A DNA stretch of 64,000 nucleotides, from positions 25,050,001 through 25,114,000 of the forward strand of contig CM097885.1 of assembly GCA_044892525.1 (NCBI GenBank), read 5' to 3'. The notes under the pieces were generated by a model. That model was not told where the DNA came from. It made no database searches and saw nothing but the letters and a program-made list of their open reading frames with translations. The DNA comes from Schmidtea polychroa (lineage: Eukaryota). Within the stretch, counting starts at the first letter, position 1, and every line of letters begins with the position of its first letter. This document shows, piece by piece, positions 25,998 through 58,198 of this stretch. Made by a program: the position numbers and the translations under genes.

Positions 25998-26019
25998 TTT
26001 AATGGTATCAAAAATGGTA

Positions 26020-26613: not shown

Positions 26614-26628
26614 TTTTAAATAAATAAA

Positions 26629-27426: not shown

Positions 27427-28790
27427 AAATCTGTTTTCTGTAACTCATTATTATAAAATCTACCTAATATTTTTTCATTATTTAAATCAATGATGCTATA
27501 TGTTATTGGAGTTGTATAATGTATTTTATTTATAATAAAAATTTCATTTGTCCGTTTTGCTGTGAATCCTTTTTCAAATTTATTTTTATATTTAAATATT
27601 CTTACTCGGTCACCAATTTTAAACTTTGGTTTTTCAATAACATCATTTTCAATATTTACCACTTTAATGGTTTCAGGATTCATGGAAGCATTTAAAGGTG
27701 TTGATTTTGTAGAACTATGTACATCATTATTATATTCATTTACAATCTTTTGTAACAACTCATTGTTCCATTTTTGTTTTCCAATAGCAGTAAAATATTT
27801 CCACATTTTATTTTTTAATGTTCTATTTAATCTTTCAACCACAACTGCTTTTCCTTCGTTTTCTGTTGAATATAATTTAATATCATTTTCATTTAAAAAC
27901 TTTGTAAAAACTTTGTTATAAAATTCTGTTCCTTTATCACACCATAAATATTTTGGAATTCTTTGATGTTCTTCAAATATATTTTCAAATGCTTCTGTAA
28001 TAGAATATCCTGTTTTATTTTCTAAACACCTTGCAAAGGCAAATCTTGTATATAAATCTATTACAGTTAAAATTATTTTATATTTTTCAGGGTCTGATGA
28101 TTTGGTTGGCATAAAGACTAAATCTGCAGACCATGTTTGATCTTTTTCATGTACTTGAACTTTTAAATATTTTTATTTTTTCAAAATTCATGGTGTAATT
28201 CGTTGGCATATTTTATTTGTGATTCTGTTGGGGTTAATAAACTAGTCTTGGATATATTCTCGAGGGATCTTTCAGCATCTGCTTGTTCAATAATCTTTTT
28301 ATTAGCAACATCTTTTGCCATCCTTGGTAAACTAGCACCTATGAAAATCTTACCTTTCATTGCTAATTTAACTAGAGCTCTTTGAATCTTTTCTTGGGTT
28401 GATGGATTTTGGATACTATTTAAATCATGTATTAAATTAACATCTGCAACATGCCTATCTCTAAGATCTTCTGAATTGTAAGCAATATCATGTTTTAAAG
28501 CTGCTTGGTCGATTCTATTTATTGGTTCTTCTCCTTGTTTGGGATTATTATTTTCATCTAATCTAATATCTAATCTTGTTCCTGGTCCGGTATAGTTGTG
28601 TTTAAATAAATGTCTTTCACCTGGATATTTTTCTGTAGTAAAAGGTTTTAATATTGAAGATGTCACTTTTGAAGATTGTAGGTCGCCTCCGGCTCGTGGA
28701 ATCATGTCGCCTCCTATATGTTTTTTAGTTTTTAGATGACTTGCTTTATGATGTCTTGTAACTTGACAATTACAACTTTTACATCTCCAA
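27423..28790 (-). pseudogene. Zinc finger + parvovirus-type PLA2 + retroviral-like integrase fusion, disrupted
   Basis: PLA2 motifs HNYTGPG and IDQAALKHDIAY (28181-28705). ANELH then TGA and a 1-nt frameshift, then WSADL, VIDLY, WCDKGTEF, VERLNRTLK and KFKIGDRVRI (27423-28112). An upstream in-frame CKSC...HLKTKKH is also present. Confidence 0.85.
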
Positions 28791-28828
28791 TAGAGACATT
28801 TTAAAATGTTAAAATATCAGGGATTATA

Positions 28829-30030
28829 TCAAGAATCTCCCCTAACATTTTCGATTATTGAAATCTTTCCACCATATAATTTCATTTCTATTTTCTTTTC
28901 TTCTAATATTAATGTATATACTTTAGCTTTAAAATTAGAATCCTTTGTTACATGAAGTGTAACATCAACATTATTTATGGCTAGGCGATCATCTTGGTCT
29001 GAAACATTTATACAAAATATAGAATATAAATTTTTGAAATCTTCTAAACTTAATTGCGGTTCAACTTTGAAATCATAACATGTTTCAATATAATTTAGAT
29101 ATGGGAATGTTTTCATTATTTTCAATATTAAATTCCATTCTATTTATTGGATAATAAGAACTATTTAATTGAATTTGGATTGTTTTTAAATTATCAACTC
29201 CAATCTTTTGAATAAACAAGTTGTTATTTTTTTGGAAAGATGAATCTACTTCTTTGAATCCAATCAAGATATATCTTGGTCGGTATGCTAAATTTGCTAC
29301 CTTTATAGAATATGTTGAACCCTCTGTCATACTAAATTCACTACAGATTCTATTTAAATAATTTACATTTATAGACTTGTTGGAATTTAATCTTTCAAGG
29401 AGTTTGATTCCAGAATGTGGATTTAATGTCCATTCAGGTATATGCAATTCAAGTGTTGATATTTTTAATTTAGTTGTTGTATCCTTATCTCCATAGAACA
29501 ATCTTTTATCACCTTCTACTCTATTACAGATGAGTTCTATAAAAACATTATGAAGTATACGATTATAGTTTTGAAGGAATCCAAACAAGTGTTTTAATTC
29601 AAAATAACCTTCAAATTTTTTAGATTTATAAAGTTCAGCTCTTTTATAGTAACCATAATTTATATCTAAACCATCTTTATCTAAATCCCCTTTATTAACA
29701 TCAGGAATCCAACCTGTTAATTCACCATATTCATTTTTATAATCACAACCAGTCAAAATAAAATTTAACATTGTAGAATTTACTCCCGGATGCAAAACAG
29801 TTTCAATTTCTGATGATCCTAGTTTTAATCTCATGTTGGAGAATAAATTTGGAAAGAAATTATTTTCTAGGGTTATATCTTTGTTTGCTTCAATTTCTAA
29901 TTCGATTTTATAATATAATTTGGCATTACAAATATCTATAGGGTTTGATGTTTGAAGAGATTGAAAAACTATATCACCTCTACGATTTAAGTTTGCAATA
30001 GATCCTGAAGTTGGGGAGATTTTAAGTACA
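28829..30030 (-). pseudogene. Polinton double-jelly-roll major capsid protein, frameshifted and 5'-truncated
   Basis: P.SG...LN..GDIVF, LENNFFPNLFSNMRLKLGSSEIE, LKHLFGF, RPRYILIGF and LNSSYYP. The C-terminus (F.NLYSIFCINVSDQ) lies in overlapping ORF 28829-29125. The N-terminus is replaced by TIR sequence. Confidence 0.85.
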
Positions 30031-30277
30031 TTATTGAAACAGGTGATGGTGGCGAACCGGTAATTATCGCCACCTGTCTTTCGAACACCCCCGGATCGAT
30101 TCTTTAATGTGCACATTTATTTCACAGTTGTTTTCGGACCTCTTTCGGATTCACTTTCGAATTCATTTGTACTTTCGAGCAGCACGCTTAAAACGCCGAT
30201 GAAATCGTATTCGAGTGAGAAGCGAATAATAAGGTGTGCTGCTATTATCGGATTGATTCTGATGTATGAGTTTGGCC
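30030..30277 (-). repeat. Remnant of the Polinton right TIR
   Basis: Reverse complement of 17347-17594. It joins the Gypsy RT through GGCCA microhomology. Confidence 0.9.
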
Positions 30278-31174
30278 TAGATCGATGGATGTGAAATATT
30301 TTGAATCTGCCAGACAATCCAGTAGAAATCGTGTATCTGGCATTGGAAAAGATATCTTTTCAGTGATCGCATTCAACCCTCTATAGTCGACACACATCCT
30401 TATTGATCCATCTTTCTTAGCCACAATCACTAGTGGCGCGTTCCATGCACTTTTGCATTTTCTAATAACTCTCGCTTCGAATAAGTTTGTGACACGTTCG
30501 TCAAGCTTTTGTTCTAAATGCATTGGTTGTCTTCTTGGCTGTAACATTACAGGCCCACCTACTCTATTCATTTCATGCTGAACAACTTTCGTAAACCCGA
30601 GATCAAAAGTTGAAGCCATAAAAATACCTTTGAACTTCCGTACCAATATGTCTAACTGTTCATTCTTCCTGTCTCCAAGCATTAATAATGCTTTCTCTTC
30701 TCGTTGTGAGTCCACATATGTCCTCCCTACTTGTGACGCTTCAATATTGTCTACCTCTACCAGTTGAATACCAAATCTCTCCATTGTATCTACACCCCCA
30801 ATGAAATCTGGACGTATATCTTTGACAACTATAACATTAATAATTCTTTTTTTCCCATTCCAATCAGCTTCTATCGTCATTGCTCCTAACGGTCTTTCCA
30901 TTCCTGTCGAAAATACTCCACAAAGAGAAATTGTGCTCTGCTTCAACCTCGGTTTCCCGATCTTTGTCCAACATTTTTCACTCATAACTGATACTGACGC
31001 TCCAGAGTCCCAAAGCATGTCAATCGCCGTCATGTTTATTACAATCTTACTCCACTTTCTTCTGTCTGTCGTCTCATACATCTTCTGCATCATGTCTTCA
31101 TTTCGCTTCTTTCTACTGATTATTGTGTCGACCCCACTGACGAAATGAAAGCAATGGGATCGTCCTTGTTTTTT
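30272..31174 (-). pseudogene. pol: Gypsy pol, 5' part: aspartic protease and RT N-terminus
   Basis: LWDSGASVS protease motif and WNAPLVIVAKKDGSIRMCVDYRGLN, ending at SIDLGQ at the Polinton junction. The frame is open back to the A AAA AAC slippery site (31168-31174). Confidence 0.9.
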
Positions 31175-32283
31175 GGTTTATCCATTGATTTTTTTATCGT
31201 TTCTTCGTAATTACTGTATAAATCTTCTGTTAAATCACCATTATTTCTTTCGTGATCTTCTTCGTAAATACATGCCACTCTCTTCTGATATCCATTTCTA
31301 TTTTTAAGCAAAAAACAATCTCTGAATCCATGACCTTCTTTTCCACAGATTAGACATTTGTCTTTCATTGGACATTCAAAACGCCGGTGCCCTTTTTCTC
31401 CACAACAAAAACACTGACCTGGTGTCAGTTTCACTGGATGAGGCGAATCTCTTCCTTTGCTGTCATTAAATAACCTTCTTGCAATATCTTTAAGCGATAC
31501 TGTAGGTATTCTTCTCTCTGGTTCTCCTGTCTCATATCGTCCTCTATACCGCTCATTTTCATTCTTGTCTTCATTTACAATTGGTACAAACCGACCATTA
31601 CCAGGTCTATTCCTCTCATGATTAATCTCTCGGTGTTCGTCGCGTTGATGTGCAGTTGTCTTCACAATTGTTCTTTGGTCTCGTCTACCCTCGAATTTAC
31701 CATTTTTCATCACTGATGCGTAGGAGTCTCTTCTTATGGCATCAATATTGAATTTATTGTCATTCGTCATCTCAATCTTCTCCTGAATTTTTGCCATATC
31801 CCTGGCATCTTCAAAACTTGTCACTTTCCCTGATAAGAATATTTCTTTTACTCTATCGTCTTTCGCTCTGTTTGAGATAATGTCTCGAACAATCTGTTCA
31901 TCAGACATTCCAGAGCTAAATACACTTTTAACTAAACTTCTTACTCGTATTTCGAAGACTTGGAATCTTTCATCTCTCTCTTGCTGAATTTGAGCTAGTT
32001 CCACAATCTTGTTAGTAATGGTTTTCCTTACTGTAAAAGTTTCTATAAACCACTCTTTTGCCATTTCATCGGTCATTTTCGCTATTTTCGCCGCTTCCCA
32101 TAACATCGATGCCGCATCTGTCAACAAAAGATCCAATGCGTCTACTAGACTTTGATCTTCTATTCTCAGCCATTCCATAATATCCTTTAGCCAAAGTTCG
32201 GCTTCAGATCCAACTTTTCCGTCAAACTTTCTGACATTAAAATTTAGCATCTCACGTGCTTGTTTTGACAAGGAATCTAACAT
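31120..32283 (-). CDS. gag: Gypsy Gag with two CCHC zinc knuckles
   Basis: CFCCGEKGHRRFEC and CLICGKEGHGFRDC. The first ATG after the PBS is at 32283. Confidence 0.9.
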   Translation of the reverse strand: MLDSLSKQAREMLNFNVRKFDGKVGSEAELWLKDIMEWLRIEDQSLVDALDLLLTDAASMLWEAAKIAKMTDEMAKEWFIETFTVRKTITNKIVELAQIQQERDERFQVFEIRVRSLVKSVFSSGMSDEQIVRDIISNRAKDDRVKEIFLSGKVTSFEDARDMAKIQEKIEMTNDNKFNIDAIRRDSYASVMKNGKFEGRRDQRTIVKTTAHQRDEHREINHERNRPGNGRFVPIVNEDKNENERYRGRYETGEPERRIPTVSLKDIARRLFNDSKGRDSPHPVKLTPGQCFCCGEKGHRRFECPMKDKCLICGKEGHGFRDCFLLKNRNGYQKRVACIYEEDHERNNGDLTEDLYSNYEETIKKSMDKPKNKDDPIAFISSVGSTQ

Positions 32284-32995
32284 ATTCTTAGTTCCTTTCT
32301 TTTTTCCTATCGCATTGATTTCCTTGGCGTGGTCGCCAGTTATGATGTCCTCAACTTCTAAATTCATAAAATAAATCAATAATAATTCAATAAAATATAT
32401 TTTTCAAAAACACACTAAAACGAATATTATTCAAACAAAACTTTACATAACTAAGCATAAATGCATAAATGCATATTTTGCTTTATAAAAAACAAACAAA
32501 ATATGCACCGCTTATAGTACAATATTCATTCCAGATCGTTTTACTCCTTAAAACTGTATTTTGATAACAGTGAAATAAAGCAATTCTATTTAATACGTAC
32601 GATAAAGATGATTGCAATGTCATAATTAATTAATTTTTAATTATTTTCAAATTACCATTGCGAAGCGTTATTTACCAATTTATCACTCGATTAAATTTGG
32701 CATTATTCAATAAACAAATCAATATTACCTTACAGTTGTGATTTTTAGGAATAACTAAAAGTAAATTAAAAGTAAAAGTAAAGTCTTTGTAGACAAAAAT
32801 TAATCGAGTTTTAATCAAATCATTTACGATATGATTTTTGAATTCTTGTTGTGGCAATAAAGGAAGTGCGTTAGATATCCCTTTAAAATAGTATGTATAA
32901 AAAGTATGTAATAATTAACATGGGTTTATTCTGTCGCACTTATTTCTAGAAAAGTTGTTAACTCTTTACTCGCATCCAGCAAAAATTTAGAAATT

Positions 32996-38213: not shown

Positions 38214-38218
<5 letters not shown>

Positions 38219-39270
38219 AGGTCTGTAAATTAAAATTAAAATTTAAATAAAATTTAGGATAATAATTCAAATGGAAAGTAAGCGAGGAAAAATGGCAAAT
38301 AAAAGCGGGATCGTGCACAGAATTAATAGTAAAGAAAAATGCGATGGAAGCAGTATTAGAAAATGCAAAAAGCAATTACGAAAGGCGAGAATCCGGAAAT
38401 CCGAGAAAAATCAATAAATGGAAAAATCATCGAAATCGAATGGGAAAAACGGGACAGGTATAGATTAGCTAATGGTCAACAAGATGATGGTTAGGGATTT
38501 ATCAGAAAAGGGTTAGGAAGGGTCGAAAAACATTCAAACGTATGAAAACAGAAAACGTTAATTAATTAATTAATTGGCTAATGGAAAACCCGAGCTAATG
38601 GGAAACCCGAGCCAATGGAGAACCCGAGAGATAAAGGAAACCCGAGCTGGGTAAACAAGAAGAAAGGCAAACAAAAGGAAGATTTGGGCCCATTAGTTTG
38701 ACACAATGATTAATGGGAAAAGAGTAAGGAGAAGATAACGCGCGTAGGAAGACCGGTAGGGCCATTAATTATCTGGATTCGTTGGACCATTATGGATGAC
38801 AGCCGAAGCAAACACGTAGGAGAAAATGTCAAACGAAAGATTGGCTCGGCAATAACCATTTGTCATCCTGATTTCGAGGAGTATATAAGCAAAGGGAAAA
38901 TCAGAGAAAATCGGCATTTTGCCTCAGCTAGGGTTCGAAGAATTAGACTGTAGGAAAAGTGGTAAACGAATTAGGGAAGTAGGGAAAAGAAGAAATAGAA
39001 TTAAGAATACGGAAAGGAGAAAAGAGATCAAACCAAACCGAAACCGAGGAAAACGAGAGTCAACAGAACTAAAGGATCAAAAGGTGAATATTGTTTGTTT
39101 GCAAAGCATCAACACCGAGCAGAGAATCGTGTAAAACTTTGATTGGTAATTGTAGAGTGATAATAAATTGTGAACCTGTTGTTTCAATATACGTTGGGTC
39201 GTTCATTGTTTTAATTTAAAGAACACCAGGAGTCAGAGAGAACCGACTTGAAATAATCCAAAACCCAACA
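38214..39270 (+). repeat. 5' LTR
   Basis: Direct repeat of 54567-55623. TATA-like TATATAA at ~38882 and AATAAA at ~39163. Confidence 0.95.
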
Positions 39271-39277: not shown

Positions 39278-39295
39278 TGGTGAGCCCGACGTGAT
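39278..39295 (+). promoter_or_regulatory. Primer-binding site, tRNA-Trp type
   Basis: TGGTGAGCCCGACGTGAT differs at one position from the classical tRNA-Trp PBS TGGTGACCCCGACGTGAT. Confidence 0.8.
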
Positions 39296-39551
39296 TGAAA
39301 GTCGGAGGAAAAAATTATTGGAAGTTAGTGAAAAAGAAATTATTAAAAAAATTTAGTACCGACGCGATAGAGAGTCGGCTGAGAATCATTGAAAGTAGTG
39401 AAAATTTGTGAAAATTGTGCTAACGAGATTATTAAAGGCTATTATTGGGAGATTTGAAAGAAGTTGAAAAGTAATTTTAAATTATTGTTTAACGTTTGAA
39501 GTTTAGCTCAAAGTGAACCGATACAACCTCAGAAGCCAGAAACAAGTCCAA

Positions 39552-42500
39552 ATGGCAAATGATAATGCTGTTATGCCTCTCAATAGAGAGATGATTGATT
39601 TCGCAAGTTGCCAGAAATTACCCGTCAATCAATATGGAGGAGACCCTGTTGAATTTGCAGATTTCATGGGAGATTATTATATGTACGCCTCAGCATACGG
39701 ATGGACACAAGCCATTATGGTTCAGAGATTCCCACTCTATCTGAAGGGTGCGGCAAGAGAAGCCTGGCAGCAAGTCGACAAACGAAATGTTGGCAATGAT
39801 TGGACAAAATTGAAGGATGCAATGGCACTGAAACTGGTTGGTGGAGATATCAAAAGAATCATGCGACAGAAATTTTATAATCGAGTTCAAGGTCCAGATG
39901 AATCGGTCAGTGAGTTTGCTTATCATCTGACCACTTTAGCAGATAAAGCCTTTGAAGTTAAACCAGACCAAGCAGATATGGCCAAGCAGGTTAAAGAGCT
40001 ATTAGAAGATCAGTTTATAACCGGAGTCCACTCCGAAATCAAAAAAGCCCTATGTTATGTGGATTTTTCCAATTTTGATGAGCTCGTGAAGAAAGCCATG
40101 AAGATAGAGCTGAATTTAAAAAGTGCAAAAAGATCAGATGCTTTTGGAGTTAATGTGGAGAGACGTGAGCGATCAATTACGCCTGTGAGAGCACCATGGG
40201 ATGAAAAGAAAATAAATCAGATCAGTAGTCCAATTTTGAGACCAAATAATAGATTTCAAGCCAGTAGATCAGCCATGAACGTACAATCAAATGGACAGGT
40301 AAATAATCCTCAATGCGAACATTGCAAAAAGTCTGGACACTACTCAAATCAATGTTGGTTCAAATATGGGAAAAATCCCAGCCCTAACAAGAGATTCACA
40401 GAAAACAAACGGATCAGCAGTGATGTCGAATGCTATCGATGCGGAAAGAAAGGGCATATTAGCAGAAACTGTTTTACCAGATCAAGGTCATCGTCAACGT
40501 CACCTTCACCACAAAGGGACAAAGTGAATACAAATGGACAGATCCAATGTCATTCGTGCAAGGGATACGGCCACATGGCTCGATCATGCCCAAGGAACTC
40601 AGAAAGATTCAACAGACCTATCTTAAAGAAATCAATCAGATTCCAAGAAGATATGCCAAACACCAGTAACATGACATATGCTCAGAGAGAGGAATTTCAA
40701 GACAAAATGGAAAAGGAATTTCGAGAAATGCGACAGAAGCTAAACAAACTAGTGGCGAAATTTGAATCAGATGAGGAAACTGAATCTCATATGATAATTG
40801 GAACCGTGTCAGAAGGTGAGGGAAAACCTGCCACGAAAGTGCGAAAGATCTCTTCAGATGAGAATCCAACTGCACTGTTAGCCCGAGTTGAAAAATGGCT
40901 TGAGAAAATGGAAACTGACAACTCCCAGTTGAAACGATGGATCGCAGAACTCAGTGTGATGTCACTAACCCAAAGCGAACTAAAGAGAGCCATAAATTTA
41001 TGTGCAAAGTTATTCAAAGGAAACAGAGACGATGAGATACTTAAACAAATGCAAAAGTTTGGCAAGGCTTTACGGTTAACAAGGGATTTAGCTGATATCA
41101 TAGTGGAAACGACGGGACTTGATAATGTGAAGTGCCAATTCCGTGTAAATGCCTACGGAAAAATCAGAGAGTTAAAGGAGCGAATCCTGCGTCAATACAG
41201 TGGATGGCAAGTGCAATTAAAATTCGAAAATCGATGTCTGGAAGACGAAGAGTACTTAGTAGATTGCGGTCTGATACCAGGCTGGAAAAATAAAGTAAAT
41301 GTTATTAATGCTGTTAATACTTTGAATTCAGACAGACGAAATTGGGAAAAGATTCTAGCAGATTTACAAGATACCCTGTATGCAGGGAATAGAGATAAAA
41401 TTAATGCGAGTATCGACTTCATAATGAGCATCGAAATGGATCGAGACATGAAAGAAGGGTTGTTTGAATGCATCGTACCGTATACGAATAAACCGACGAG
41501 TTATCAGGCAAAACTAAAAGAGGTAATCCGAAAACTAGGACATGATTATGAGGCGGCAGACGATAGTGCGAAGTCTTTGATAATAGCGTTAAATATTGCG
41601 GATCAAAGGATTGAATATTATCAGGAACATTGGAGTGTAAAAGCAAAGAAAATACGACAAAAAGCAGCGGAGATATTAGGTAATGAAGGAATTATCGTGT
41701 TGACGTTCAAAGGACGAGAATTGGATGATGACGAATATTTATTAAACTACGGATGTAACCCAAATTGTATTAATAATGTGTACGCAACAAAACAAAGTGA
41801 TGAAATGGAAAGAGATGCGGTAATAGTACCGTTTTGGCCTCTATATGAGGAAATGGATAATAATAATGTGGAGATTAAAACTGAAGTTGTAGATGACCCA
41901 GGAGAAATTGATCAAGAAATTAATGAATTGCAGAGATTAGAAACAATGGAAAATGAGGAAATGGGATCGGAAAATGAAGTTGCAAGGGATATCGGGGAAA
42001 TGAGCACCGATAATAGGGTACTACCGAGCATAGATGAGATGAAGAGCGAAGAGAACTTCGTTGAAACGAAAAATGACATTGCGATATGTCGGAAAAAACA
42101 GAATGATGCGGAAATTGAATCTTTGAGTTTAGATAAATCGAGCGAAACTGAGCGTTTAGATGAATCAAACGAGACTGAACGAATATTAAAAAGTTTAGTT
42201 ACGGAATTGTACTTGTTAGATGAAACTGAAACAGAAGATGATACTTCGGAGGGGGAGGAAAGAGTTGTAAAAAGATTGGCAACGGAATTAAAGAGGAGAT
42301 TACCGTCGATAATTAAAAGAAATTATGAAGAAAAGGAATTTTGTGAGGAAGCAGTGATTGAGGACCTAACACGAACTGAGTTAGATCGAGATGTAATATT
42401 GACAGCGTTAGCCTATATAATATTGGAGATTGGTATTTATGGTTGTCTGGAAAGTGACAGTTCAAAATCATTGATAAAGAAAGCTACGGAAATGACGAAT

Positions 42501-45500
42501 AAATATTTGGCTAGGTGGATCGCAAACAATGGCGGATGGGAAAATTTGATACAAAAGGCTGAGAGCCCAAAAACCGAGACAGTGAGGAAAAAGGGAAAAC
42601 TCGCATTTCCATGGTTGATGATTTCTGTTATTATGTTATTGGGAATAATAAACACGACGAATTCATTGGTGGCATACGACTGCTCCCAAACCGAAATGGG
42701 AAGAGTATATTCGTTGGTAAACGTAGCAGAGTGTTCGGATGCATATCCAGTAAAATTTAAAGTGACAAATCCAGTAAAATATTATGTATATCAAGAATCG
42801 GGATTTCGACGAGCAAAGGTGAGAGAGTGTACAGTGAAACGAACTACTTTTGTATTTTATTGTGGAAAATGGAGTCACTCATCGATGGTGAAAATGCAAT
42901 CGATACCTAGACCGATAGAAATAATTCCAGAGAATTGTTTGGCAGCCTTTCAAACAGGACAGTTGAAAATCAATGCAGATCTCAAACTACAAGCAAAGCT
43001 TAACCACAAAATCCGTGAGACTGTAACCGTGCGAGGGATAATAAAGTCGAATGGTGATTGCCAAGGCGAGCCATACAAAGTAGACGATGCTATAATGGAC
43101 AAAGCCGTGGTTGTGGAAGAGTACATGTCAGAATTAAGAGAATTTGATGGATCATTTGATGATGATACTGGTAAACTACAAACACATCCATTCTGCAACA
43201 TGAAACAATCTAGCTGTCGGACAGGAGAATCAATCTTGGTGTACGATGTCGATACCAAAAAGTGCAATTTAGTGCAATTGAAGTCAATGAGTTTTAAAGA
43301 AATAACGGGAGAACAGATCAGGGAAAAGCCTGAGAAAATAAGAATGGATCCAGCAACGAGTACAACAACAAGAATCACACCTCTACGGATGAAAGATACT
43401 CCAACAGTGTTAATGTCAACCTCGGAGGAAGATGGGATGCGATTCCTGAGAAAAGAAACTAAAACAAAGTGTGGACAAAGTGTCTATGAGACAAATTATA
43501 AAGGTATATATGTATCTCAGAAGATGATTACAGAGGCCCAAACAAACATACATGCCGGAGATATTAAGTTGACAAATTACTTTAATAACAAAATAGATTA
43601 TTTATTTCACTTTGGTCAAAATACTGTTGAAAATGTGTACCGAGAAGTTATTATAAATGATTGCAATCTCAACAAAGAAATACTCCGAAATCGGATGGCA
43701 ATGGCTATAACCAATCCTAATTTGGTAGCACCAATGTTAATTGCAGAAAATGGAGTGTTCGCCAGAATTTTCGGTGAAGCACTATATAGCTATAAATGTA
43801 AAGCGGTACCAGTTAAACTGACAAAGTATGACCAATGCACCAACGAGTTACCAGTGAATTTAAATGGAAAGTTGCGATTTATGGAGCCTGTAACACGAAT
43901 CTTACTGGAAGAGGACGCGAAACCGAAAGTATTACAGTGCAATAGATTGTTAGCACCATTATACAGACTAACACCAGAATCTTGGATTGCATTACCAGAT
44001 CATCGAGAAGTAAAGACACCGGAAAACTTAGAATTGACAGAATTACAATATCTGGTAAATTTTACGTCGTTAGAAAAATTGTCGCAAAGTGGAATTTACT
44101 CGAACGAAGACATTGAGGAAGCTCGCAGAAACTTGTTATTTCCATCAAAGAAAGAAAGAGTAATAATGGAAATGGTAGATACAATTCTCCCAAGCGGAAG
44201 TGGGAAGGTAAATTATGAGTATTTGTTAACTCCAGATCATTACAAGAAAGCGACGTATAATACAATGAAAAAGATCTGGGGAAAGTTTATGTTCATTGGA
44301 CAAGCATGTGCCGGATTGATTGGAATTTATGTAATATGTGTTGTAATCAAAGTAATAATATCGCAGGCCCTATCAACACACAGATTATATGCGATCACAG
44401 GTTGGTCGTGGAAACTAGTAATTGGTTGCATACCATTATTGGCTAGATTCTTCATTACTCATCATCAATATCAGGAGTTGGAGATACTCAAGGCTCGAAT
44501 ATTAAAGAAGAAAAAGGTGAGCTACGCGAGTACAACCCCTTCAAGGGACGAGAACAATGACAATGACAACGAGGGTGATAGTGCACCGTTATATGTTGAC
44601 AATCAAGAACTAAGTGGAATGAATAAAGAAGCGTTAAGAACCTATCAAATCTTAAAAGAGCCACTGTTGAATGCGAGTAGCGTAGACACGTTTACAAAAC
44701 TGTGTATACCAAAATCATTTATGCAACCAGCACCAGTGTATCCAGTTGATCGATTACGAGAGATGAAACCAGTGGAAAATATCGCATTACAATGTGAAGG
44801 AATGGTAGGAGAGAGAATCGAGCCTTCTAGCGCAGAGATCGAGAGAAAAAATATGTTAGGCTTACCATGCAACTACTCAATGATGACATTAACAAAAAGA
44901 GGAAAGCAACCCCGAATATTTATACAAATGAACAAACATAAAGTGGAAGCTTTAGTCGATTCGGGATCTAGTCACACAATAGTATCGGAAAATGTATTAA
45001 ACGCGAAGGAAAAAATGCGAATGAAGCCTACCGGTGAAATAGTGAGGTCATTATCAAAAAATGAATTAAACATAATTGGACAACTTAACGTCATATTCCA
45101 TATTGGAGATCGAATAATAGCGCACGATGCGCTCATAATGAAGGGAAGTCCAGTACGATGTCTGATCGGCATGGATATATTAGAGCAGCTGGACGGAGTC
45201 TCACTTGAGTTAAAGACAGGTAATTTGATAGCAGGAGAAACAGGAGAAATAATTCACAGGGCAGGTGAAGTGTTTGTGAATCAGACATTGACAATACCAC
45301 CACAATCGGAGATGGTATATTGTGCAAATACCATGAGTGTGGATAATGGTGATTTTATATTCGAACCAAATCAAACGCTAGTCGAAAAATATGATTTACC
45401 GATATGTGACGAAGTTGTCAAAGTGGAAAATCAGATAGTACCAGTCCATATAACGAATAGCAGCAAAAAACCGGTTCAGCTACACCCAAAAACAAAATTG

Positions 45501-48500
45501 GGAAAATTATCAAAAATGTCTATTGAAACAAATTGTAAAATACCAAGAAACGTCAAGGTGTATAAGGAGCCTGAAGTGGTAAGCAATGATTTAAATGAGA
45601 TGCAGAAAAAGGAATTCACAAAACTGTTGAGGAAATACCGAGATATCTTTGCCAAACACGAATATGATTTGGGTTTAACCAATGTAATTGAGCATGAAAT
45701 ACCGTTATTAGACGAAACTCCAATAAAAATAAAGCCATACAGAATCCCCTACGTTCATCAAGATGAAAGCGATAGACAGATTACAGCAATGAAGGAATTT
45801 GGAATAATTCGAGATAGCGCGTCACCATTCTCCTCATCAATAGTGATAGTTAAGAAAAAAGATGGAGACTTACGATTTTGCGTAGATTATCGGAAGCTAA
45901 ATCAAGTTACAAGGAAAGACACTTATCCAATTCCGGTACCCCAAGAAATGTTTGATCAAATGGGAGAGGCACGATATTTCACAGTTATTGATTTAAACAA
46001 AGGGTACAATCAATTTAGAGTAAAAGAGGAAGATAGAGGAAAGACGGCGTTCTCGGATGGCAAAGGACTGTATGAGTTCAATGTGTTACCATTTGAATTA
46101 ACAGGAGCCCCAGCTACATTCCAACGAGGAATGAATTATGTGTTACGAGGAATTCGACATGCATTGGTATATATCGACGATATAATAATATTTTCAAATG
46201 ATTTTGAAGAACATCTGAAGGATGTAGAAACTGTATTTAAACGGCTCAAAAGTGCAAAATTAAAAATCAAACCATCGAAATGTGAATGGGGCAAAGCAGA
46301 AGTGATTTATGTAGGACATATAATATCACGGCGAGGGTTACAAACTAATCCAGATAACATCAAAAAAGTGGAAGAGTACCCAGTACCAAAAGATGCCGAT
46401 GAGGTTAGACAATTTTTAGGTTTGGCGAGCTATTACAGAAAATTTATAAAAGATTTCTCTCATATCGCACAACCATTGAATACGTTACTAAAGAAAAACA
46501 ATAAATTTATTTGGGGACAAATGCAACAAAACGCTTTCAATACATTAAAAGAGAAATTAGTAACAACTCCTATATTAAGATGTCCAGATTTTACAAAACA
46601 ATTTATCTTGATGACGGATGCAAGCAACGTTGCATTGGGTGCGGTATTGGGACAAAAATTTGAAGGTGAAAAGGACCATGTAATAGCATACGCAAGCAGA
46701 TCATTGAGGCCTCACGAGAAAAACTACTCAACGATTGAAAAGGAAACGTTAGCGTTAGTGTATGGAATTACTACTTTTAGACAATATTTATTGGGCAGAA
46801 AATTTACTGTTTATACAGATCATAATCCATTACAGTGGTTAATGAAACACAGAGATTCAGCCAGTAAGTTAATACGATGGTCAATTGCCCTCCAAGAATA
46901 CGACTTTGAGATTAAATACCGGACAGGTAAAGCTAACGCGAATGCAGATGCAATGTCGAGAATCCCAGAAAATAATAGTGAAGGGACACCTGGAAAAGTG
47001 GAAGGCACTATATTCGCAGCAATCAAAGCTGTTAATGATATGTCTGAACTTCAAAATGATCAGGAAAACGATAGTGAATTAAAACAATTTATGGAACAAG
47101 CGGTCAAAATAAGAAAAGAACAAGACTGGAAACGACTTACAGATGCAAACAGCAAATATGTAATTCATAATGGAATACTTAAATGTTGGAAAAATGGGGA
47201 AGCATTAATTATTATACCAGCCAAGCACAGAGATGCATTACTGATGCAGTATCATGATGGAGCGTTGGGAGGTCATTTGTCAACGCGCAAGACGCTATCA
47301 AGATTAAAATTGAAATACTTTTGGCCGACAATGGAACAAGACGTGAAAAATTGGTGTAACAGTTGCAAAGTATGCATCACCCGCAGAAATACTGGTAAAA
47401 AGATTAAAGTACCATTAAAACCGATGCCAGTACCTGCAGCACCAATGGAGATGACGGCAATGGATATTCTGGGACCATTACCGGAAACAACAAAAGGAAA
47501 CAAATACATTGTTGTTTTTTGTGACTACTTTACCAAATGGCCAGAAGCATACGCTATTCCAAACCAAAAAGCAGATACGATTGCTAGAATATTTGTGGAA
47601 AACATAATAGTTCGCTATGGTACTCCAAAGAAATTGTTAACTGATCAAGGAAAGAACTTTCAAAGCGAGATGTTTAAATCAATCACAGACTTATTTGGAA
47701 TTTGGAAATTGAATACGTCACCATATCATCCACAAACTGATGGATTGGTGGAACGATTTAATGGGACACTGATAAATATGATCTCATCATATGTGAATCG
47801 AAAACAGAAAGATTGGGACGACTTCATAAAGCCGTGTCTGTTTGCCTACAGAAATGCAGTAAATCAAAGTACAGGAGAGACCCCTTTTTACTTGATGTAT
47901 TTAAGGAAAAATAATATGCCGATTGATCTCAAATTCCAACCACCAATTTCACAATATATGGAGATACCCGATTATAAAGCATTGATGCAAGAAAGAATGC
48001 AGTCAGTATGGACTAAAGCCGGTTTGACAATAAAGCACAACCAAGAGAAATATAAAGAATCATACGATAAAAAAGCACATGCGCATGGCATAAAGATTGG
48101 AGATCTAGTATATCTGAACAGACCGGAACCTCTCAAAGGTTTATCGCCTAAATTGCAAAGACCATTTAAAGGACCCTACAAAGTGTGCGACACCACCGAA
48201 ACCAATTTGAAGTTATTACCATTCAGGAGTAAAAAGGCTAACCCGATGATTGTGCATGCAAATCGATGTAAACTAGTGCCAGAGGAAGATGAATCTAGAT
48301 ACCCCTTAAGATCCAAGCAGAATAAAGTAACGGGTCAAACAAAATTGAAACAGAAATTCACGAAAAATCCAACACCAGTCAGCTACATCAATAAGATATT
48401 ATATGTAGCAATAATGCTGATGTTAGTAACAGTTGCGAGCGGCAAAAAGATTGATTTACCATATGCGGTAAACAAAATCCGAGGAATGGAGAAAATACAT

Positions 48501-49160
48501 ATATATTCCACTCTAACAAATATAGTATGGAGCTGTAAATGCGAGATCGCAGACCAAATAGAAATTATTAATTTACTAGACAATACGGCACCAGTGGTAG
48601 AACTGAATTATGATAAAGATATAGTTGCGGTACGAAAGTTAAAGCCAAATTACAAATACCAATGGCTGTTGAGACAGAACATGTCAAAGTGGTACACGCA
48701 AATTCCGATAGAAGTGCACACAAAAGAGATGCGAAACTTGATCGAGATAGAACCAGAGATAAACGGAATCAATATATATTGGAAGCCAGTGGACTTGGTG
48801 AAAGTACGACTCACATTTCAAGGGTTAAATGTCGACACCCTTAACTCGCGAAAATCATTTATCCGCTACGAGAAATTGAAAATGAATCAAAATTGTTCAG
48901 TTAATGCAAACTACTACGAGAACATATGCCTCGAAAATGGAACGGTAGTGAGAAACCAATGGTCACGATTTAAGAGTGAGACCCAGTCTATCTATCTCAG
49001 AGACGAGTCAAATCGTATAACCCTGAGTGTTGGAAATGGACCGGTAACGATATATAGAAAATCAGGAAATGATGAAAGAGTTGTTATTATCTACAAACAA
49101 AAAACCCTGACTATATTAGATACCGGTAATCATTTTTTACACTTTACACTTCTGATTTAG
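39552..49160 (+). CDS. Single polyprotein: Gag(3xCCHC)-UBL-UBL-Bcl-2-like-signal-class III glycoprotein-TM-PR-RT-RNase H-IN-signal-ectodomain
   Basis: First ATG at 39552. CCHC knuckles ~40314-40589, UBL-like 41097-41307 and 41577-41790, WIANNGGW 42516-42539, AYDC...YCGKWSH glycoprotein from 42666, TM ~44277-44455. Then LVDSGS 44958, YIDD 46170, TDAS RNase H, HHCC and D,D,E integrase, GPY 48171 and a second hydrophobic signal ~48396-48443. Confidence 0.95.
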   Translation: MANDNAVMPLNREMIDFASCQKLPVNQYGGDPVEFADFMGDYYMYASAYGWTQAIMVQRFPLYLKGAAREAWQQVDKRNVGNDWTKLKDAMALKLVGGDIKRIMRQKFYNRVQGPDESVSEFAYHLTTLADKAFEVKPDQADMAKQVKELLEDQFITGVHSEIKKALCYVDFSNFDELVKKAMKIELNLKSAKRSDAFGVNVERRERSITPVRAPWDEKKINQISSPILRPNNRFQASRSAMNVQSNGQVNNPQCEHCKKSGHYSNQCWFKYGKNPSPNKRFTENKRISSDVECYRCGKKGHISRNCFTRSRSSSTSPSPQRDKVNTNGQIQCHSCKGYGHMARSCPRNSERFNRPILKKSIRFQEDMPNTSNMTYAQREEFQDKMEKEFREMRQKLNKLVAKFESDEETESHMIIGTVSEGEGKPATKVRKISSDENPTALLARVEKWLEKMETDNSQLKRWIAELSVMSLTQSELKRAINLCAKLFKGNRDDEILKQMQKFGKALRLTRDLADIIVETTGLDNVKCQFRVNAYGKIRELKERILRQYSGWQVQLKFENRCLEDEEYLVDCGLIPGWKNKVNVINAVNTLNSDRRNWEKILADLQDTLYAGNRDKINASIDFIMSIEMDRDMKEGLFECIVPYTNKPTSYQAKLKEVIRKLGHDYEAADDSAKSLIIALNIADQRIEYYQEHWSVKAKKIRQKAAEILGNEGIIVLTFKGRELDDDEYLLNYGCNPNCINNVYATKQSDEMERDAVIVPFWPLYEEMDNNNVEIKTEVVDDPGEIDQEINELQRLETMENEEMGSENEVARDIGEMSTDNRVLPSIDEMKSEENFVETKNDIAICRKKQNDAEIESLSLDKSSETERLDESNETERILKSLVTELYLLDETETEDDTSEGEERVVKRLATELKRRLPSIIKRNYEEKEFCEEAVIEDLTRTELDRDVILTALAYIILEIGIYGCLESDSSKSLIKKATEMTNKYLARWIANNGGWENLIQKAESPKTETVRKKGKLAFPWLMISVIMLLGIINTTNSLVAYDCSQTEMGRVYSLVNVAECSDAYPVKFKVTNPVKYYVYQESGFRRAKVRECTVKRTTFVFYCGKWSHSSMVKMQSIPRPIEIIPENCLAAFQTGQLKINADLKLQAKLNHKIRETVTVRGIIKSNGDCQGEPYKVDDAIMDKAVVVEEYMSELREFDGSFDDDTGKLQTHPFCNMKQSSCRTGESILVYDVDTKKCNLVQLKSMSFKEITGEQIREKPEKIRMDPATSTTTRITPLRMKDTPTVLMSTSEEDGMRFLRKETKTKCGQSVYETNYKGIYVSQKMITEAQTNIHAGDIKLTNYFNNKIDYLFHFGQNTVENVYREVIINDCNLNKEILRNRMAMAITNPNLVAPMLIAENGVFARIFGEALYSYKCKAVPVKLTKYDQCTNELPVNLNGKLRFMEPVTRILLEEDAKPKVLQCNRLLAPLYRLTPESWIALPDHREVKTPENLELTELQYLVNFTSLEKLSQSGIYSNEDIEEARRNLLFPSKKERVIMEMVDTILPSGSGKVNYEYLLTPDHYKKATYNTMKKIWGKFMFIGQACAGLIGIYVICVVIKVIISQALSTHRLYAITGWSWKLVIGCIPLLARFFITHHQYQELEILKARILKKKKVSYASTTPSRDENNDNDNEGDSAPLYVDNQELSGMNKEALRTYQILKEPLLNASSVDTFTKLCIPKSFMQPAPVYPVDRLREMKPVENIALQCEGMVGERIEPSSAEIERKNMLGLPCNYSMMTLTKRGKQPRIFIQMNKHKVEALVDSGSSHTIVSENVLNAKEKMRMKPTGEIVRSLSKNELNIIGQLNVIFHIGDRIIAHDALIMKGSPVRCLIGMDILEQLDGVSLELKTGNLIAGETGEIIHRAGEVFVNQTLTIPPQSEMVYCANTMSVDNGDFIFEPNQTLVEKYDLPICDEVVKVENQIVPVHITNSSKKPVQLHPKTKLGKLSKMSIETNCKIPRNVKVYKEPEVVSNDLNEMQKKEFTKLLRKYRDIFAKHEYDLGLTNVIEHEIPLLDETPIKIKPYRIPYVHQDESDRQITAMKEFGIIRDSASPFSSSIVIVKKKDGDLRFCVDYRKLNQVTRKDTYPIPVPQEMFDQMGEARYFTVIDLNKGYNQFRVKEEDRGKTAFSDGKGLYEFNVLPFELTGAPATFQRGMNYVLRGIRHALVYIDDIIIFSNDFEEHLKDVETVFKRLKSAKLKIKPSKCEWGKAEVIYVGHIISRRGLQTNPDNIKKVEEYPVPKDADEVRQFLGLASYYRKFIKDFSHIAQPLNTLLKKNNKFIWGQMQQNAFNTLKEKLVTTPILRCPDFTKQFILMTDASNVALGAVLGQKFEGEKDHVIAYASRSLRPHEKNYSTIEKETLALVYGITTFRQYLLGRKFTVYTDHNPLQWLMKHRDSASKLIRWSIALQEYDFEIKYRTGKANANADAMSRIPENNSEGTPGKVEGTIFAAIKAVNDMSELQNDQENDSELKQFMEQAVKIRKEQDWKRLTDANSKYVIHNGILKCWKNGEALIIIPAKHRDALLMQYHDGALGGHLSTRKTLSRLKLKYFWPTMEQDVKNWCNSCKVCITRRNTGKKIKVPLKPMPVPAAPMEMTAMDILGPLPETTKGNKYIVVFCDYFTKWPEAYAIPNQKADTIARIFVENIIVRYGTPKKLLTDQGKNFQSEMFKSITDLFGIWKLNTSPYHPQTDGLVERFNGTLINMISSYVNRKQKDWDDFIKPCLFAYRNAVNQSTGETPFYLMYLRKNNMPIDLKFQPPISQYMEIPDYKALMQERMQSVWTKAGLTIKHNQEKYKESYDKKAHAHGIKIGDLVYLNRPEPLKGLSPKLQRPFKGPYKVCDTTETNLKLLPFRSKKANPMIVHANRCKLVPEEDESRYPLRSKQNKVTGQTKLKQKFTKNPTPVSYINKILYVAIMLMLVTVASGKKIDLPYAVNKIRGMEKIHIYSTLTNIVWSCKCEIADQIEIINLLDNTAPVVELNYDKDIVAVRKLKPNYKYQWLLRQNMSKWYTQIPIEVHTKEMRNLIEIEPEINGINIYWKPVDLVKVRLTFQGLNVDTLNSRKSFIRYEKLKMNQNCSVNANYYENICLENGTVVRNQWSRFKSETQSIYLRDESNRITLSVGNGPVTIYRKSGNDERVVIIYKQKTLTILDTGNHFLHFTLLI

Positions 49161-49516
49161 AGACGGCATGGGAATTAACAGTTAAATATCAGCGATGGAT
49201 AACCGATCCAGGCAGATGGCAAACAGTTTTCGTGGAAGTCAAGACAATCAATGAATCGAAACGAAAATCATATACAACCACATCACCTTTCCAATTACCG
49301 ACCCAAGAGACGACAAAACCTAACTCAAACAAACTAAGGATGATAAATTCGGATTTGACAGTCAACTATTGTGAATATCTTATTTACATTTTAATAACAG
49401 GTTTTCTCATCTTATCAATAACATTCATAATCATCACCATCTTGATATGTGTAAAAGAGAGACAGCTAACTATCCTTCAACCACCATCATATTCATATTA
49501 TGAGACAAGACTATAA
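49130..49516 (+). CDS. -1-frame extension of the polyprotein: Ser/Thr-rich stalk, TM helix and PPSY tail
   Basis: The frame opens just before T TTT TTA (49133-49139) and reads LYTSDLETAWELTVKYQRWITDPGRWQTVFVEVKT...LIYILITGFLILSITFIIITILIC...QPPSYSYYETRL. Confidence 0.7.
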   Translation, partial: SFFTLYTSDLETAWELTVKYQRWITDPGRWQTVFVEVKTINESKRKSYTTTSPFQLPTQETTKPNSNKLRMINSDLTVNYCEYLIYILITGFLILSITFIIITILICVKERQLTILQPPSYSYYETRL

Positions 49517-52534: not shown

Positions 52535-54566
52535 TTGATAGTAGTAATAATAATAGTAGTAGTAGTAGTAATTTTTCAAGTTTATTTCTCATTTAAATTG
52601 ATATCTCTAACATTTCAGGGAACTGCAAATATTATTATTCTTTGGTAATTTTCAAATAATTTCCAATTATAATTTGCAAGCATTACACAAATGCCTAAAT
52701 ATTATTTTAAATGCTCAATTATATCCACTCAAATCCTCATGCTAGTAAATAGCAAGATTAATAACAATTTTATACAAATCATTGAATTGCTTTATAATTG
52801 CCGATATTTCATAACATCACATATAATTGTTACATAAAATGAATAAATAATAAACCTACTTCAATCTTAAAAATATAAATTAATAAACCCAAAGAAATTT
52901 GTTAAAATAATGAAAAAAAAAACATTTTTTTTCATTGTTTTATTGAACCTTCGATTTGAGCTGGAATTCTGAGAGTTGATCGACAGATTGTAAATATATA
53001 TCTCAAACCTGTGCTAATTTTTATACAATTAATACAAAAAAAAAATTAATCTAACCATTGTGTTTCTTCTTCGACGTTTGGTAGCATACATGGTTTTTAT
53101 AACCCAATCGTCAACCATAGATAAGTGTGAATGAAATTTAAGCCAAACTCTAATATAAAAAAAAAATAAATATATTTTTTTTCGTTAAACTCGTTTAAGT
53201 GTTCTCTATGAGTTATTTATTGGCCACAAAAATGTCAGTTGATTCCTGTGTTGAGAATATCTTGGATTGTTCCGGAAATTCGAATGAAGCAATAGATTGA
53301 TTACTTAATGTACGGAAAAAAAATAATGAAACAAAATATTGATATTTCATCATTTAAGGACTCAGAAAGAGCAGAAAGTTATGACACGACAAAATCTCGA
53401 CCAATGAAAATTCCTTTCTCACCTCGATTTGCCAGTGTTTTTGGTCATGCGTATTGTCGAATCTTCTTACTCTGCAACACCACACGAAGGAATTTTTCTC
53501 TCCATTCTTTCTTCTCAATAGATAAAAAAAAATAATATTTTTCTAAATTCATAATTATTTTAGTTCTATTTTAAATATTTTAATTTCGTCATTTAAAATG
53601 GTTATATCAAATTTATTCCAAATTATATTTTAATAAAAATCAAAAAAAAAATAAAATTTTCTTATTAAAATTTATGAAATTTATTTCCTTAAAAATAAAA
53701 TTAATTTTGATATTTTGTTTAAATATCTCTATTAAATAGAAAGAAAAATTTCATTCAATGGAAAATAGAAACAGAAAGACAGTTTATATTTCAAATTTCC
53801 CAGAAACAATAAGTGAAAATGATCTCAAATGCATTGCATCATTAAATAGTTGCAGCAATATTTATTTATTCACAGCTAATTGTTTATATTAAGATCTGAA
53901 TAGAGTTGCATAATACTACTTACATAGGGTGTTAAATTAGCAGTACTCGTGCTATTTTCTGCATACATACCCAGATTAGTGAGCAAAAATCCCATAACTC
54001 CATGATTTAACCAGATTTTATCGATTCTTTAATTTCTGTTAAAACAGAATTACTTTTGAGATTCAGGTCCGCCATATTTTTACATATTTTCAAAATTAAC
54101 TCAATCATTTTTGGTTGGCTAATATTTTAAGCAGTTTGCCAATAAATTATTAGTATTATTGTAATTATAACCGTATTTTCAGTCTTTGGGGTAAAAGTAA
54201 TTTCCTGCATGATGTGCACACATATTCTCATGTCGACAAACCACAATGATCTACAGGAGACCTAAACCACTTATTATAGTTGCTTTCTAGTATAAATAAT
54301 TTAGAAATAACATTCCATTATTTATAAAGGTTTAATTTCTGTTATCCCTACCTACCCCCAATATCCTTCCCCAAAAGATAGAAAAATATATTCAGGAAAA
54401 TTGCCAGCTTATTAAAGAATATCTTTTAATATATAATATTTAAATTAAAAATAACAATAATAATGGTATTTGTGTTGATAGGAATAATAATGACATTTAA
54501 TGTTAACAAAACTTTCCATTAAAACACAAATTTCGAGGACGAAAAAATTTTTTAAGGGGGGAGATA

Positions 54567-55618
54567 TGTTGAGGTCTGTAAATTAAAATTAAAATTGAAA
54601 TAAAATTTAGGATAATAATTCAAATGGAAAGTAAGCGAGGAAAAATGGCAAATAAAAGCGGGATCGTGCACAGAATTAATAGTAAAGGAAAATGCGATGG
54701 AAGCAGTATTAGAAAATGCAAAAAGCAATTACGAAAGGCGAGAATCCGGAAATCCGAGAAAAATCAATAAATGGAAAAATCATCGAAATCGAATGGGAAA
54801 AACGGGACAGGTATAGATTAGCTAATGGTCAACAAGATGATGGTTAGGGATTTATCAGAAAAGGGTTAGGAAGGGTCGAAAAACATTCAAACGTATGAAA
54901 ACAGAAAACGTTAATTAATTAATTAATTGGCTAATGGAAAACCCGAGCTAATGGGAAACCCGAGCCAATGGAGAACCCGAGAGATAAAGGAAACCCGAGC
55001 TGGGTAAACAAGAAGAAAGGCAAACAAAAGGAAGATTTGGGCCCATTAGTTTGACACAATGATTAATGGGAAAAGAGTAAGGAGAAGATAACGCGCGTAG
55101 GAAGACCGGTAGGGCCATTAATTATCTGGATTCGTTGGACCATTATGGATGACAGCCGAAGCAAACACGTAGGAGAAAATGTCAAACGAAAGATTGGCTC
55201 GGCAATAACCATTTGTCATCCTGATTTCGAGGAGTATATAAGCAAAGGGAAAATCAGAGAAAATCGGCATTTTGCCTCAGCTAGGGTTCGAAGAATTAGA
55301 CTGTAGGAAAAGTGGTAAACGAATTAGGGAAGTAGGGAAAAGAAGAAATAGAATTAAGAATACGGAAAGGAGAAAAGAGATCAAACCAAACCGAAACCGA
55401 GGAAAACGAGAGTCAACAGAACTAAAGGATCAAAAGGTGAATATTGTTTGTTTGCAAAGCATCAACACCGAGCAGAGAATCGTGTAAAACTTTGATTGGT
55501 AATTGTAGAGTGATAATAAATTGTGAACCTGTTGTTTCAATATACGTTGGGTCGTTCATTGTTTTAATTTAAAGAACACCAGGAGTCAGAGAGAACCGAC
55601 TTGAAATAATCCAAAACC

Positions 55619-55623
<5 letters not shown>
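54567..55623 (+). repeat. 3' LTR
   Basis: Direct repeat of 38214-39270, preceded by the PPT and followed by (TA)n. Confidence 0.95.
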
Positions 55624-57523: not shown

Positions 57524-57889
57524 ATGTCTTACTCTGACGAAGCTAACGGTGATGAAGATTACAATCAGATGGTAACGCGGCTCCGGACCCGGTATATATG
57601 GTGTCATATTCACAGGTGGAGCCAGGGGCGGGACCTGGACTGCTCCAATCGGGTCATCTGAAGTGGCCCAGAGCCCGGTGCCCCGGCGTGGGTAAAAGTA
57701 GAGCCCACCAACAACGTGTTATGGGAAGCCCGCGATCGAGCGGCCGACGAGGTAGTAGAGGCCCAGAAGCGGCTGAGGAGACTCGAGCTCCAACTCAAAG
57801 CCGAAATGATGGGAGTAACTCCTGAAGAACTGGAGGAGACAGATGCCCCTCCACGAAAACGGGGAAGGCCCCGTAAGAACCCGGCCTAA
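57524..57889 (+). pseudogene. AT-hook protein of copy B with one premature stop
   Basis: Colinear with 1428-1793 without indels. CGA>TGA at 57659-57661. Ends PPRKRGRPRKNPA. Confidence 0.8.
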
Positions 57890-58198
57890 CTTATCGATAG
57901 TAACAATTCGGGCGAACTATTTAATCTAATTAGTGATACTATGTGGTGTTTGACTTTTTGTTTTTGGACTATGACGAACTGTAGCGATTTTTATTATTAA
58001 AACTTTTTGGTCGTGCGTATTCATAATATAATAAATCATCTTTTAGCCATTATATAGAGGTCTTATTGCGTATGGGGTGTCTCCAGGGACGGGATGACCC
58101 CCCCCCCTACTCTTCAGTTACTAATTTTATGAAAATAATCGAATTACCTTTATGCACATGGAAGTGAGCGACGAAATTTTTATTATTGTTTTCCTTCA

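Follow-up and report, generated by a model that had tools for sequence, protein, structure and literature searches.

A predicted Bcl-2-fold domain under purifying selection in the polyprotein of a Burro-type retroelement of Schmidtea polychroa

The Burro long terminal repeat (LTR) retrotransposons of the planarian Schmidtea mediterranea comprise Burro1 (GYPSM1) and Burro-2 to Burro-4 (Jurka 2007 and Grohme 2018, as cited in PMC6431247). According to the available portions of that 2019 review, they encode a single polyprotein with gag, CCHC knuckles, Ub/SUMO-like and BCL2-like domains, an in-frame env with matches to mononegavirus glycoproteins, and protease, reverse transcriptase, RNase H and integrase (PR-RT-RH-IN), in an order that places the Ubi2/SUMO-like segment before BCL-2, env between BCL2 and PR, and a dUTPase-like segment between PR and RT. 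The same portions note the BCL2-like motif in Burro-2, -3 and -4 and suggest that it meddles with host apoptosis; a Bcl-2-like domain ahead of env in Burro elements is thus already a known annotation. In the literature that we reached this annotation rests on a domain match, and in its accessible parts (PMC8532177 and PMC11410931 included; Grohme 2018, Lee 2026 and their supplements, which may cover both points, lay outside the scope) we found no test of the domain and no account of a signal-anchor topology. Here we analyse a Burro-type element of Schmidtea polychroa, contained in a window of 64,000 nt (GenBank assembly GCA_044892525.1, contig CM097885.1, positions 25,050,001 to 25,114,000 of the forward strand; coordinates below are those of the window, and all features of the element are on the plus strand), adding support for the fold, data on selection, a degenerate BH1 (Bcl-2 homology 1) position, a probable signal-peptide origin of the membrane anchor and a natural loss control.

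The window element is a Gypsy LTR element whose open reading frame (ORF) reads gag, ubiquitin-like, Bcl-2-like, hydrophobic segment, fusion glycoprotein, PR, RT, RH and IN. It shares with the Burro elements the in-frame env between gag and pol and the succession of Ub/SUMO-like, BCL2-like and env segments. It differs from Burro1 in size: the element measures 17.4 kb, its LTRs 1.06 kb and the ORF of long-frame copies 3,334 aa, versus >30 kb and 4,873 aa for Burro1. It has neither a MATH match in Pfam nor, by tblastn, an ORF for a BIR-bearing inhibitor of apoptosis (IAP). When the genome (781 Mb, four chromosome-size contigs) was searched with the window Bcl-2 domain, all 150 scored candidates (of 1,206 from a first look) matched at 92-100% identity, several within 3,334-aa frames. 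A host gene overlapping the element was considered as the source of the domain and rejected, since the domain is in frame with the polyprotein and recurs in all of these candidates.

The domain covers aa 886-1017 (42162..42557), as delimited by Pfam, phmmer, Atlas, profile and predicted-structure searches. An initial annotation, made from the window's letters, had placed a Bcl-2-like domain at 42170..42600, describing an all-helical segment that ends in a WIxxxGGW BH2 motif; the folded part agrees with that span, whereas the hydrophobic helix assigned to it (42600-42650) lies just beyond the end. The BH2 motif, YLARWIANNGGWENLI, occupies aa 1000-1015 (42504..42551). WIxxxGGW would be expected 6.5e-5 times by chance in the ORF, and a relaxed form occurred in 16 of 20,000 shuffles; a chance motif was rejected on the strength of these shuffles, the structure ranking and the cross-family profile matches. 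Pfam, applied to a 157-aa piece, matched Bcl-2 (PF00452) as the sole family (aa 959-1011, E = 0.0024) at 18.8 bits, under the gathering score of 31.4 bits, so that the Pfam scan proposed in the initial annotation returned the expected family below its cut-off. Each of the 57 PDB sequences that phmmer retrieved at E <= 10 was a member of the Bcl-2 family or a chimera (best E = 0.054), and a profile built from element sequences alone retrieved human Bcl-2 at E = 1.5e-4. The top three matches in the ESM Atlas were BID and BCL2L15 (0.90-0.91), with a recognition score of 2069, under the 2300 mark.

Predicted structure points the same way. An AlphaFold2 (AF2) model of aa 886-1022, built on an alignment of 11 element sequences only so as not to force a Bcl-2 answer, has seven helices and zero strands (mean pLDDT 62.9, pTM 0.56). 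All 35 rows shown by Foldseek for this model against the PDB belong to the Bcl-2 family (best E = 3e-3, TM up to 0.67), headed by BAK. In a VIA search against 48,161 chains, Bcl-2 folds filled ranks 1-32, the best at Z = 12.5 (rmsd 3.1, 116 aligned), and the first unrelated chain appeared at Z = 5.4; because Z values below ~13 can, as the aligner warns, be common among helical bundles, the argument for a Bcl-2 fold rests on this gap and on the uniform identity of the matches. Viral Bcl-2 (vBcl-2) rows also led a viral search, at E values of only 0.04-0.3, and KsBcl-2, BHRF1, A179L, DPV022 and ORFV125 gave Z = 5.9-10.7 against the model. Fold scores failed to separate pro-death from anti-death members (top Z within 1). 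The model thus shows the helical bundle around a strongly hydrophobic helix 5 (aa 963, hydropathy 2.13) that defines the Bcl-2 fold. On this modelling evidence the segment is a real domain of the Burro-type element with a predicted Bcl-2 fold, bearing out the structural comparison that the initial annotation had called for; it qualifies as a Bcl-2 fold but not as a canonical multi-BH protein.

Two sister families carry the same domain. Searching the genome with Pfam Bcl-2 gave 136 matches in the 150 candidates scored (of 909) and led to family B, whose 13.4-kb elements have an ORF of 3,051-3,053 aa and score 29.2-29.9 bits on Pfam Bcl-2, a few copies reaching 31.4-33.3. Family C, reached via a BIR search, gave no match to Pfam Bcl-2; its elements, of 30-34 kb, bear a MATH domain, a BIR-RING ORF, a Bcl-2 segment homologous to that of the window element and, in three of four loci, LTRs of 4.1-4.3 kb, matching the published description of Burro1 (compared by description). 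The BIR-RING ORF of family C had no tblastn match in the window element or in family B. Both families share 36-41% env identity with the window element, and all three have a helical domain ending in BH2, a linker, a hydrophobic helix and YDC at the Env start. Profiles built from two of the families retrieved the third in three of three trials (E = 9e-8, 1e-8 and 4e-5 in a three-sequence search).

The BH motifs were retained unequally. The BH2 core (W-I-x3-G-G-W, aa 1004-1011) is present in 41 of 44 window-family copies and recurs as WIKLKGGW in family B and YILEQGGW in family C, which supports the conservation in sister copies on which the initial annotation had made its claim depend. Only a few residues are invariant across all three families, and these belong to helix 5 and BH2 (A84, Y85, I120, G124, G125 and W126 in domain numbering). 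The BH3 motif is defined by an invariant Asp in helix 2, at which position the helix 2 segment VKRLATEL, picked by eye, has Thr; this motif is not kept in B or C. A predicted complex of the domain with a BH3-like peptide from a host gene (L136), run with the alignment not used, scored 0.01 against a mark of 0.34, a value that speaks neither for nor against binding. At the BH1 position (42384..42395) alignments set DRDV opposite NWGR, as had been recognised from the ELDRDVI found there, with NRDK as the counterpart in B and DQNR in C; single-sequence phmmer gives a different register, likewise without WGR. W and G are gone in all three families, and the Arg position keeps a basic residue in B (K) and C (R). 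The Gly and Arg of NWGR are described as important in BH3 binding in the parts available of PMC9027176 and PMC7719400; because both are gone in the window family, a canonical BH3 groove is unsupported there. The poxviral DPV022, according to the accessible text of PMC11209288, has no BH motifs and yet binds Bak, Bax and Bim.

The Bcl-2 domain is under purifying selection. Variants were counted in 43 of the 150 listed copies, spread across the ranking, plus the window copy (n = 44); copies had been picked by their match to the Bcl-2 region, which biases them slightly toward conservation, and the p values are rough because shared variants are non-independent events. Variants shared by at least two copies comprised 17 nonsynonymous and 20 synonymous changes in the domain (dN/dS = 0.32, p = 6e-4), those in at least three copies gave dN/dS = 0.44 (p = 0.02), and singletons comprised 53 and 23 (dN/dS = 0.88). 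Between two subfamilies of family B the domain had a dN/dS of 0.10-0.11 (confidence interval 0.05-0.20 for the value of 0.11), with dS at ~1.2.

A natural loss control came from two outside relatives of the same architecture, P0004 and P0005, found by their env region (two of 3,703 candidates). In both, an acidic, low-complexity spacer stands in place of the Bcl-2 domain, none being detectable, and with the P0004 spacer as query the Atlas returned no lead to the Bcl-2 family (best 0.79). RT-RH-IN identity to the window element is 58% for P0004 versus 48-50% for B and C; env and RT trees, unrooted or unresolved, do not root a putative loss. P0004 also has three protease-like segments, two flanking a spacer downstream of env and a third after the integrase. 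Other searches for outside homologues, weak for so short and divergent a domain, gave none among 532 candidates and none among 8,000 scored, and two matches among 1.84 billion proteins were long repeat proteins, dropped as spurious.

In a tree of six element rows and 11 host and Polinton-like rows, the element rows were set apart by a branch with support of 90/92, unstarred and with a long-branch warning. Because the six group on one side of this branch, a single capture from a host gene by an ancestor of Burro-type env-bearing LTR elements appears likely from the sequences. The phylogeny against host Bcl-2 genes proposed earlier thus unites the element rows and names no donor, and hhalign of the element domain to the host gene L021 aligned BH2 only. 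L021 is one of seven near-identical host-like Bcl-2 genes with canonical NWGR (L021-L027), which lie within ~0.9 Mb (G000:C4:89.9-90.8 Mb).

Downstream of BH2, as seen in the initial annotation, basic residues (RKKGK, aa 1027-1031) lead into a hydrophobic stretch from aa 1032 (Kyte-Doolittle 19-window 1.99). By hydropathy, the basic stretch, a 17-aa hydrophobic helix and a polar c-region (42585..42674) form a predicted internal Env signal peptide that would double as the anchor of the upstream precursor. Env follows immediately (42675..44360), with a mononegavirus-like fusion glycoprotein ectodomain (Pfam Monjiviricetes_fusion, E = 6.7e-93) and a transmembrane helix (aa 1600-1618; hydropathy). 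The layout of the hydrophobic helix before YDC is the same in five of five elements compared. Since P0004 and P0005 keep this helix and a polar stretch ahead of AYDC despite having no detectable Bcl-2 domain, and since the Pfam fusion-protein profile match starts inside the helix (profile position 5-7) in P0004, P0005 and family B, the helix is best read as Env's own predicted internal signal peptide. The idea of a tail anchor doubling as the glycoprotein signal peptide therefore holds in part: one segment does follow the domain and precede Env, whereas its origin as a captured Bcl-2 tail is disfavoured. The helix is internal and would become C-terminal only following the predicted signal-peptidase cleavage, after which it would serve the upstream precursor as an anchor in the endoplasmic reticulum (ER) and not as a mitochondrial tail taken over with the domain. 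Hydropathy gives additional helices at aa 1600 and aa 2958 and another in the tail ORF, consistent with a four-pass polyprotein; the only other peak is helix 5 of the Bcl-2 domain.

What might such a domain do? We give about even chances to its being a non-canonical dampener of host cell death that is tethered to the membrane. In this scheme the ER would take up the threaded polyprotein, and signal peptidase would cut just ahead of Env's YDC start. A Gag-Ub-Bcl-2 precursor would stay behind on the cytosolic side, with the used signal peptide as its anchor, and cleavage by the protease that the element encodes could then release a membrane-bound Bcl-2 unit. Via a reshaped surface this unit would bind pro-death members of the host's Bcl-2 family or death signals of the ER, and expressing cells would be kept alive long enough for new element copies to be made. 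We propose this role because the fold is kept under selection, because viral Bcl-2 proteins provide a precedent, and because the Burro1 BIR-RING IAP reportedly guards the stem cells of planarians against caspase death (Lee et al. 2026, as relayed in the available part of PMC13465017). A fuller version is possible and rather doubtful: a working retroelement vBcl-2, anchored in the ER, with a rebuilt, NWGR-free groove and an Env signal-peptide tether, would shield planarian stem cells in an IAP-less, high-copy family as B-IAP reportedly does for Burro1, within a flavivirus-like polyprotein whose four passes would thread Gag, Bcl-2, Env, Pol and a second surface protein.

Several observations weigh against a death-dampening role. 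The confidence of the AF2 model is modest, with three of five models below 47, Foldseek gave zero rows at E <= 0.001, and the Z values fall in the range of the aligner's warning. The Gly and Arg of NWGR are D and V in the window family. The Bcl-2 domain is less constrained than env (dN/dS = 0.12) or RT (0.03), and in its core (aa 925-1015) variants in at least three copies gave a dN/dS of 0.53 that was not significant (p = 0.15). Because P0004 and P0005 share the architecture without it, the domain is dispensable. Of indirect relevance only, BURRO1 knockdown gave no improvement of the smedwi-2 phenotype, according to the accessible portion of PMC8532177.

The main rival, which we consider unlikely, is an assembly role in which the captured fold, its death regulation lost, would be re-used as a matrix-like spacer tying Gag to the Env-bearing membrane via the signal peptide. 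Under the predicted topology Gag would be membrane-tethered irrespective of any activity of the Bcl-2 domain, an acidic spacer occupies the same place in P0004 and P0005, and BH1 is scrambled, the few cross-family invariant residues being confined to helix 5 and BH2. Yet if a low-complexity spacer suffices in relatives, selection for a full fold in three families only 36-41% identical in env asks for a more specific use, and the clade also carries an IAP. Still less probable is a poxvirus-type immunomodulator, which would block innate or stress signalling, as A52, B14 and N1 do, by surfaces outside the BH3 groove. The loss of NWGR, the adjoining ubiquitin-like domain, the additional MATH/TRAF domains of family C and the presence of A52, N1 and B14 among the fold matches (Z = 6.2, 6.2 and 4.9) would suit it; cellular multi-BH proteins fit far better (Z = 11-12.5), however, and BH2, which to our knowledge the A52/B14/N1-type poxviral proteins lack, is retained.

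We give slightly less credit again to a decaying relic, constrained merely to keep the polyprotein soluble and in frame. The window family is the most degenerate at BH1 and scores 18.8 bits in Pfam versus 29-30 in family B, dN/dS rises to 0.44 for variants in at least three copies, and P0004 and P0005 do without the domain. Against decay, the dN/dS of 0.32 is on par with those of the ubiquitin-like (0.33), protease (0.31) and dUTPase-position (0.31) segments and below that of the upstream acidic linker (0.60), and the family B values are lower still. Least probable of all is a pro-death or membrane-permeabilising (Bak/Bok/Bid-like) domain aiding particle exit from the cell: BAK heads the Foldseek rows, BID and BCL2L15 lead the sub-threshold Atlas matches, VKRLATEL in helix 2 is BH3-like and helix 5 is strongly hydrophobic, but Thr replaces the BH3 Asp in a motif that families B and C do not keep, the fold scores cannot tell pro-death from anti-death members, and killing host cells would be costly to an inherited element.

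The remaining features of the element are as follows. The 5' LTR (38214..39270; TG...CA, 1,057 bp, ends read in the sequence) is placed in a (TA)n tract, and the 3' LTR (54567..55623) was set by LTR comparison and by reading its ends. The 17.4-kb insertion is young, its two LTRs being 99.8% identical in an alignment of 1,065 bases. Directly after the 5' LTR lies a primer-binding site beginning TGG (39278..39296), which we take to match tRNA-Trp, and a polypurine tract (54554..54563) precedes the 3' LTR. A single polyprotein ORF runs from 39507 to 49160 (3,217 aa stop to stop, first Met at aa 16, nt 39552); it stops early toward its 3' end relative to the 3,334-aa ORFs of sister copies, and the tail ORF (49130-49516) is in the main frame in seven of seven long-frame sister copies examined. 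Gag (39729..40601) has Retrotrans_gag (aa 75-160) and CCHC knuckles (~aa 266-365), with Pfam E values of 7e-8 and 2e-8. The ubiquitin/SUMO-like domain (aa 532-589; 41100..41273) is a Pfam ubiquitin match below the cut-off (E = 0.0028) and occupies the same place as in Burro1, as far as the available text of PMC6431247 goes. Pol (44904..47732; Pfam) contains the aspartic protease, a conserved segment at the Burro1 dUTPase-like position, RT, RNase H and integrase; the dUTPase-like label for the segment between PR and RT is taken from those same portions of PMC6431247, the segment having no Pfam match in the window element. After the integrase come a second signal-like helix (aa 2958-2976), an unnamed C-terminal domain and a last transmembrane helix, across two frames in the window copy (48378..49516); Pfam gave no match in this region, which is possibly a second surface protein. 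P0004 has the same post-integrase layout, and family B has the signal-like helix there plus a separate 722-aa ORF. Contigs of four runs whose RNA nature is guessed span the region (two of the pieces measure 9,302 and 5,447 nt) and show no joint isolating the domain; they were not used as evidence.

Bcl-2 genes also occur in other mobile elements of this genome. Multi-copy Polinton-like elements (L036-L050, L061-L063, L066-L067; G000, e.g. C1:50163300-50173299 and C1:15401000-15410999) bear free-standing Bcl-2 genes with tails, at or above the Pfam cut-off, together with an A32 ATPase, an rve integrase, a TBP-like ORF and PolB-like fragments, and one group of these genes appears to contain a short intron. 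Here mobile elements may have captured Bcl-2 a second time, in a less described case; a literature search on Bcl-2 in Polinton/Maverick elements turned up a giant-transposon review alone. The window itself holds a 12.9-kb Polinton (17347-30277) with 248-bp terminal inverted repeats and ORFs for PolB, A32 ATPase, integrase, a PLA2-like protein and a double-jelly-roll capsid, which sits within the pol of a minus-strand Gypsy element (~14525-32452). Elsewhere in the window are inverted copies of a 2.5-kb repeat (271-2761 and 56580-59008, 79% identical), a 63-bp tandem array (3024-4491) and a Methyltransf_32 ORF (62605-63984).

Three known systems invite comparison beyond Burro itself. The capsid precursors of flavi- and hepaciviruses are signal-anchored in the ER by the internal signal peptide of the next glycoprotein; in the same manner an internal glycoprotein signal peptide would here anchor an upstream cytosolic protein, although the proteins are unrelated and the topology of the window element is predicted from hydropathy only. 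With cellular Bcl-2, Bcl-xL, Bak and Bok the window domain shares the predicted fold (Z to 12.5), BH2, the hydrophobic helix 5 and a downstream membrane helix; unlike them it has neither NWGR nor the BH3 Asp, scores below the Pfam cut-off and is embedded in a polyprotein, and its membrane helix leads into a 550-aa ectodomain rather than ending the protein. With the Bcl-2 proteins of double-stranded DNA viruses (KsBcl-2, BHRF1, A179L, DPV022 and ORFV125) it has in common a host-like death-regulator fold carried by a mobile parasite, and some of those proteins, by the available part of PMC11209288, bind BH3 proteins without BH motifs. They are free-standing genes with shown binding, whereas the window domain is part of a polyprotein and known from sequence, and KsBcl-2 and ORFV125 retain the Gly-Arg pair (accessible text of PMC9027176 and PMC7719400) that the window domain does not. 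If the domain works, the vBcl-2 strategy would extend from DNA viruses to a retroelement. A working domain would also be relevant to the recently reported support of planarian regeneration by anti-apoptotic genes that Burro elements carry, since the window family lacks an IAP and, of modules related to cell death, we found only the Bcl-2 fold there.

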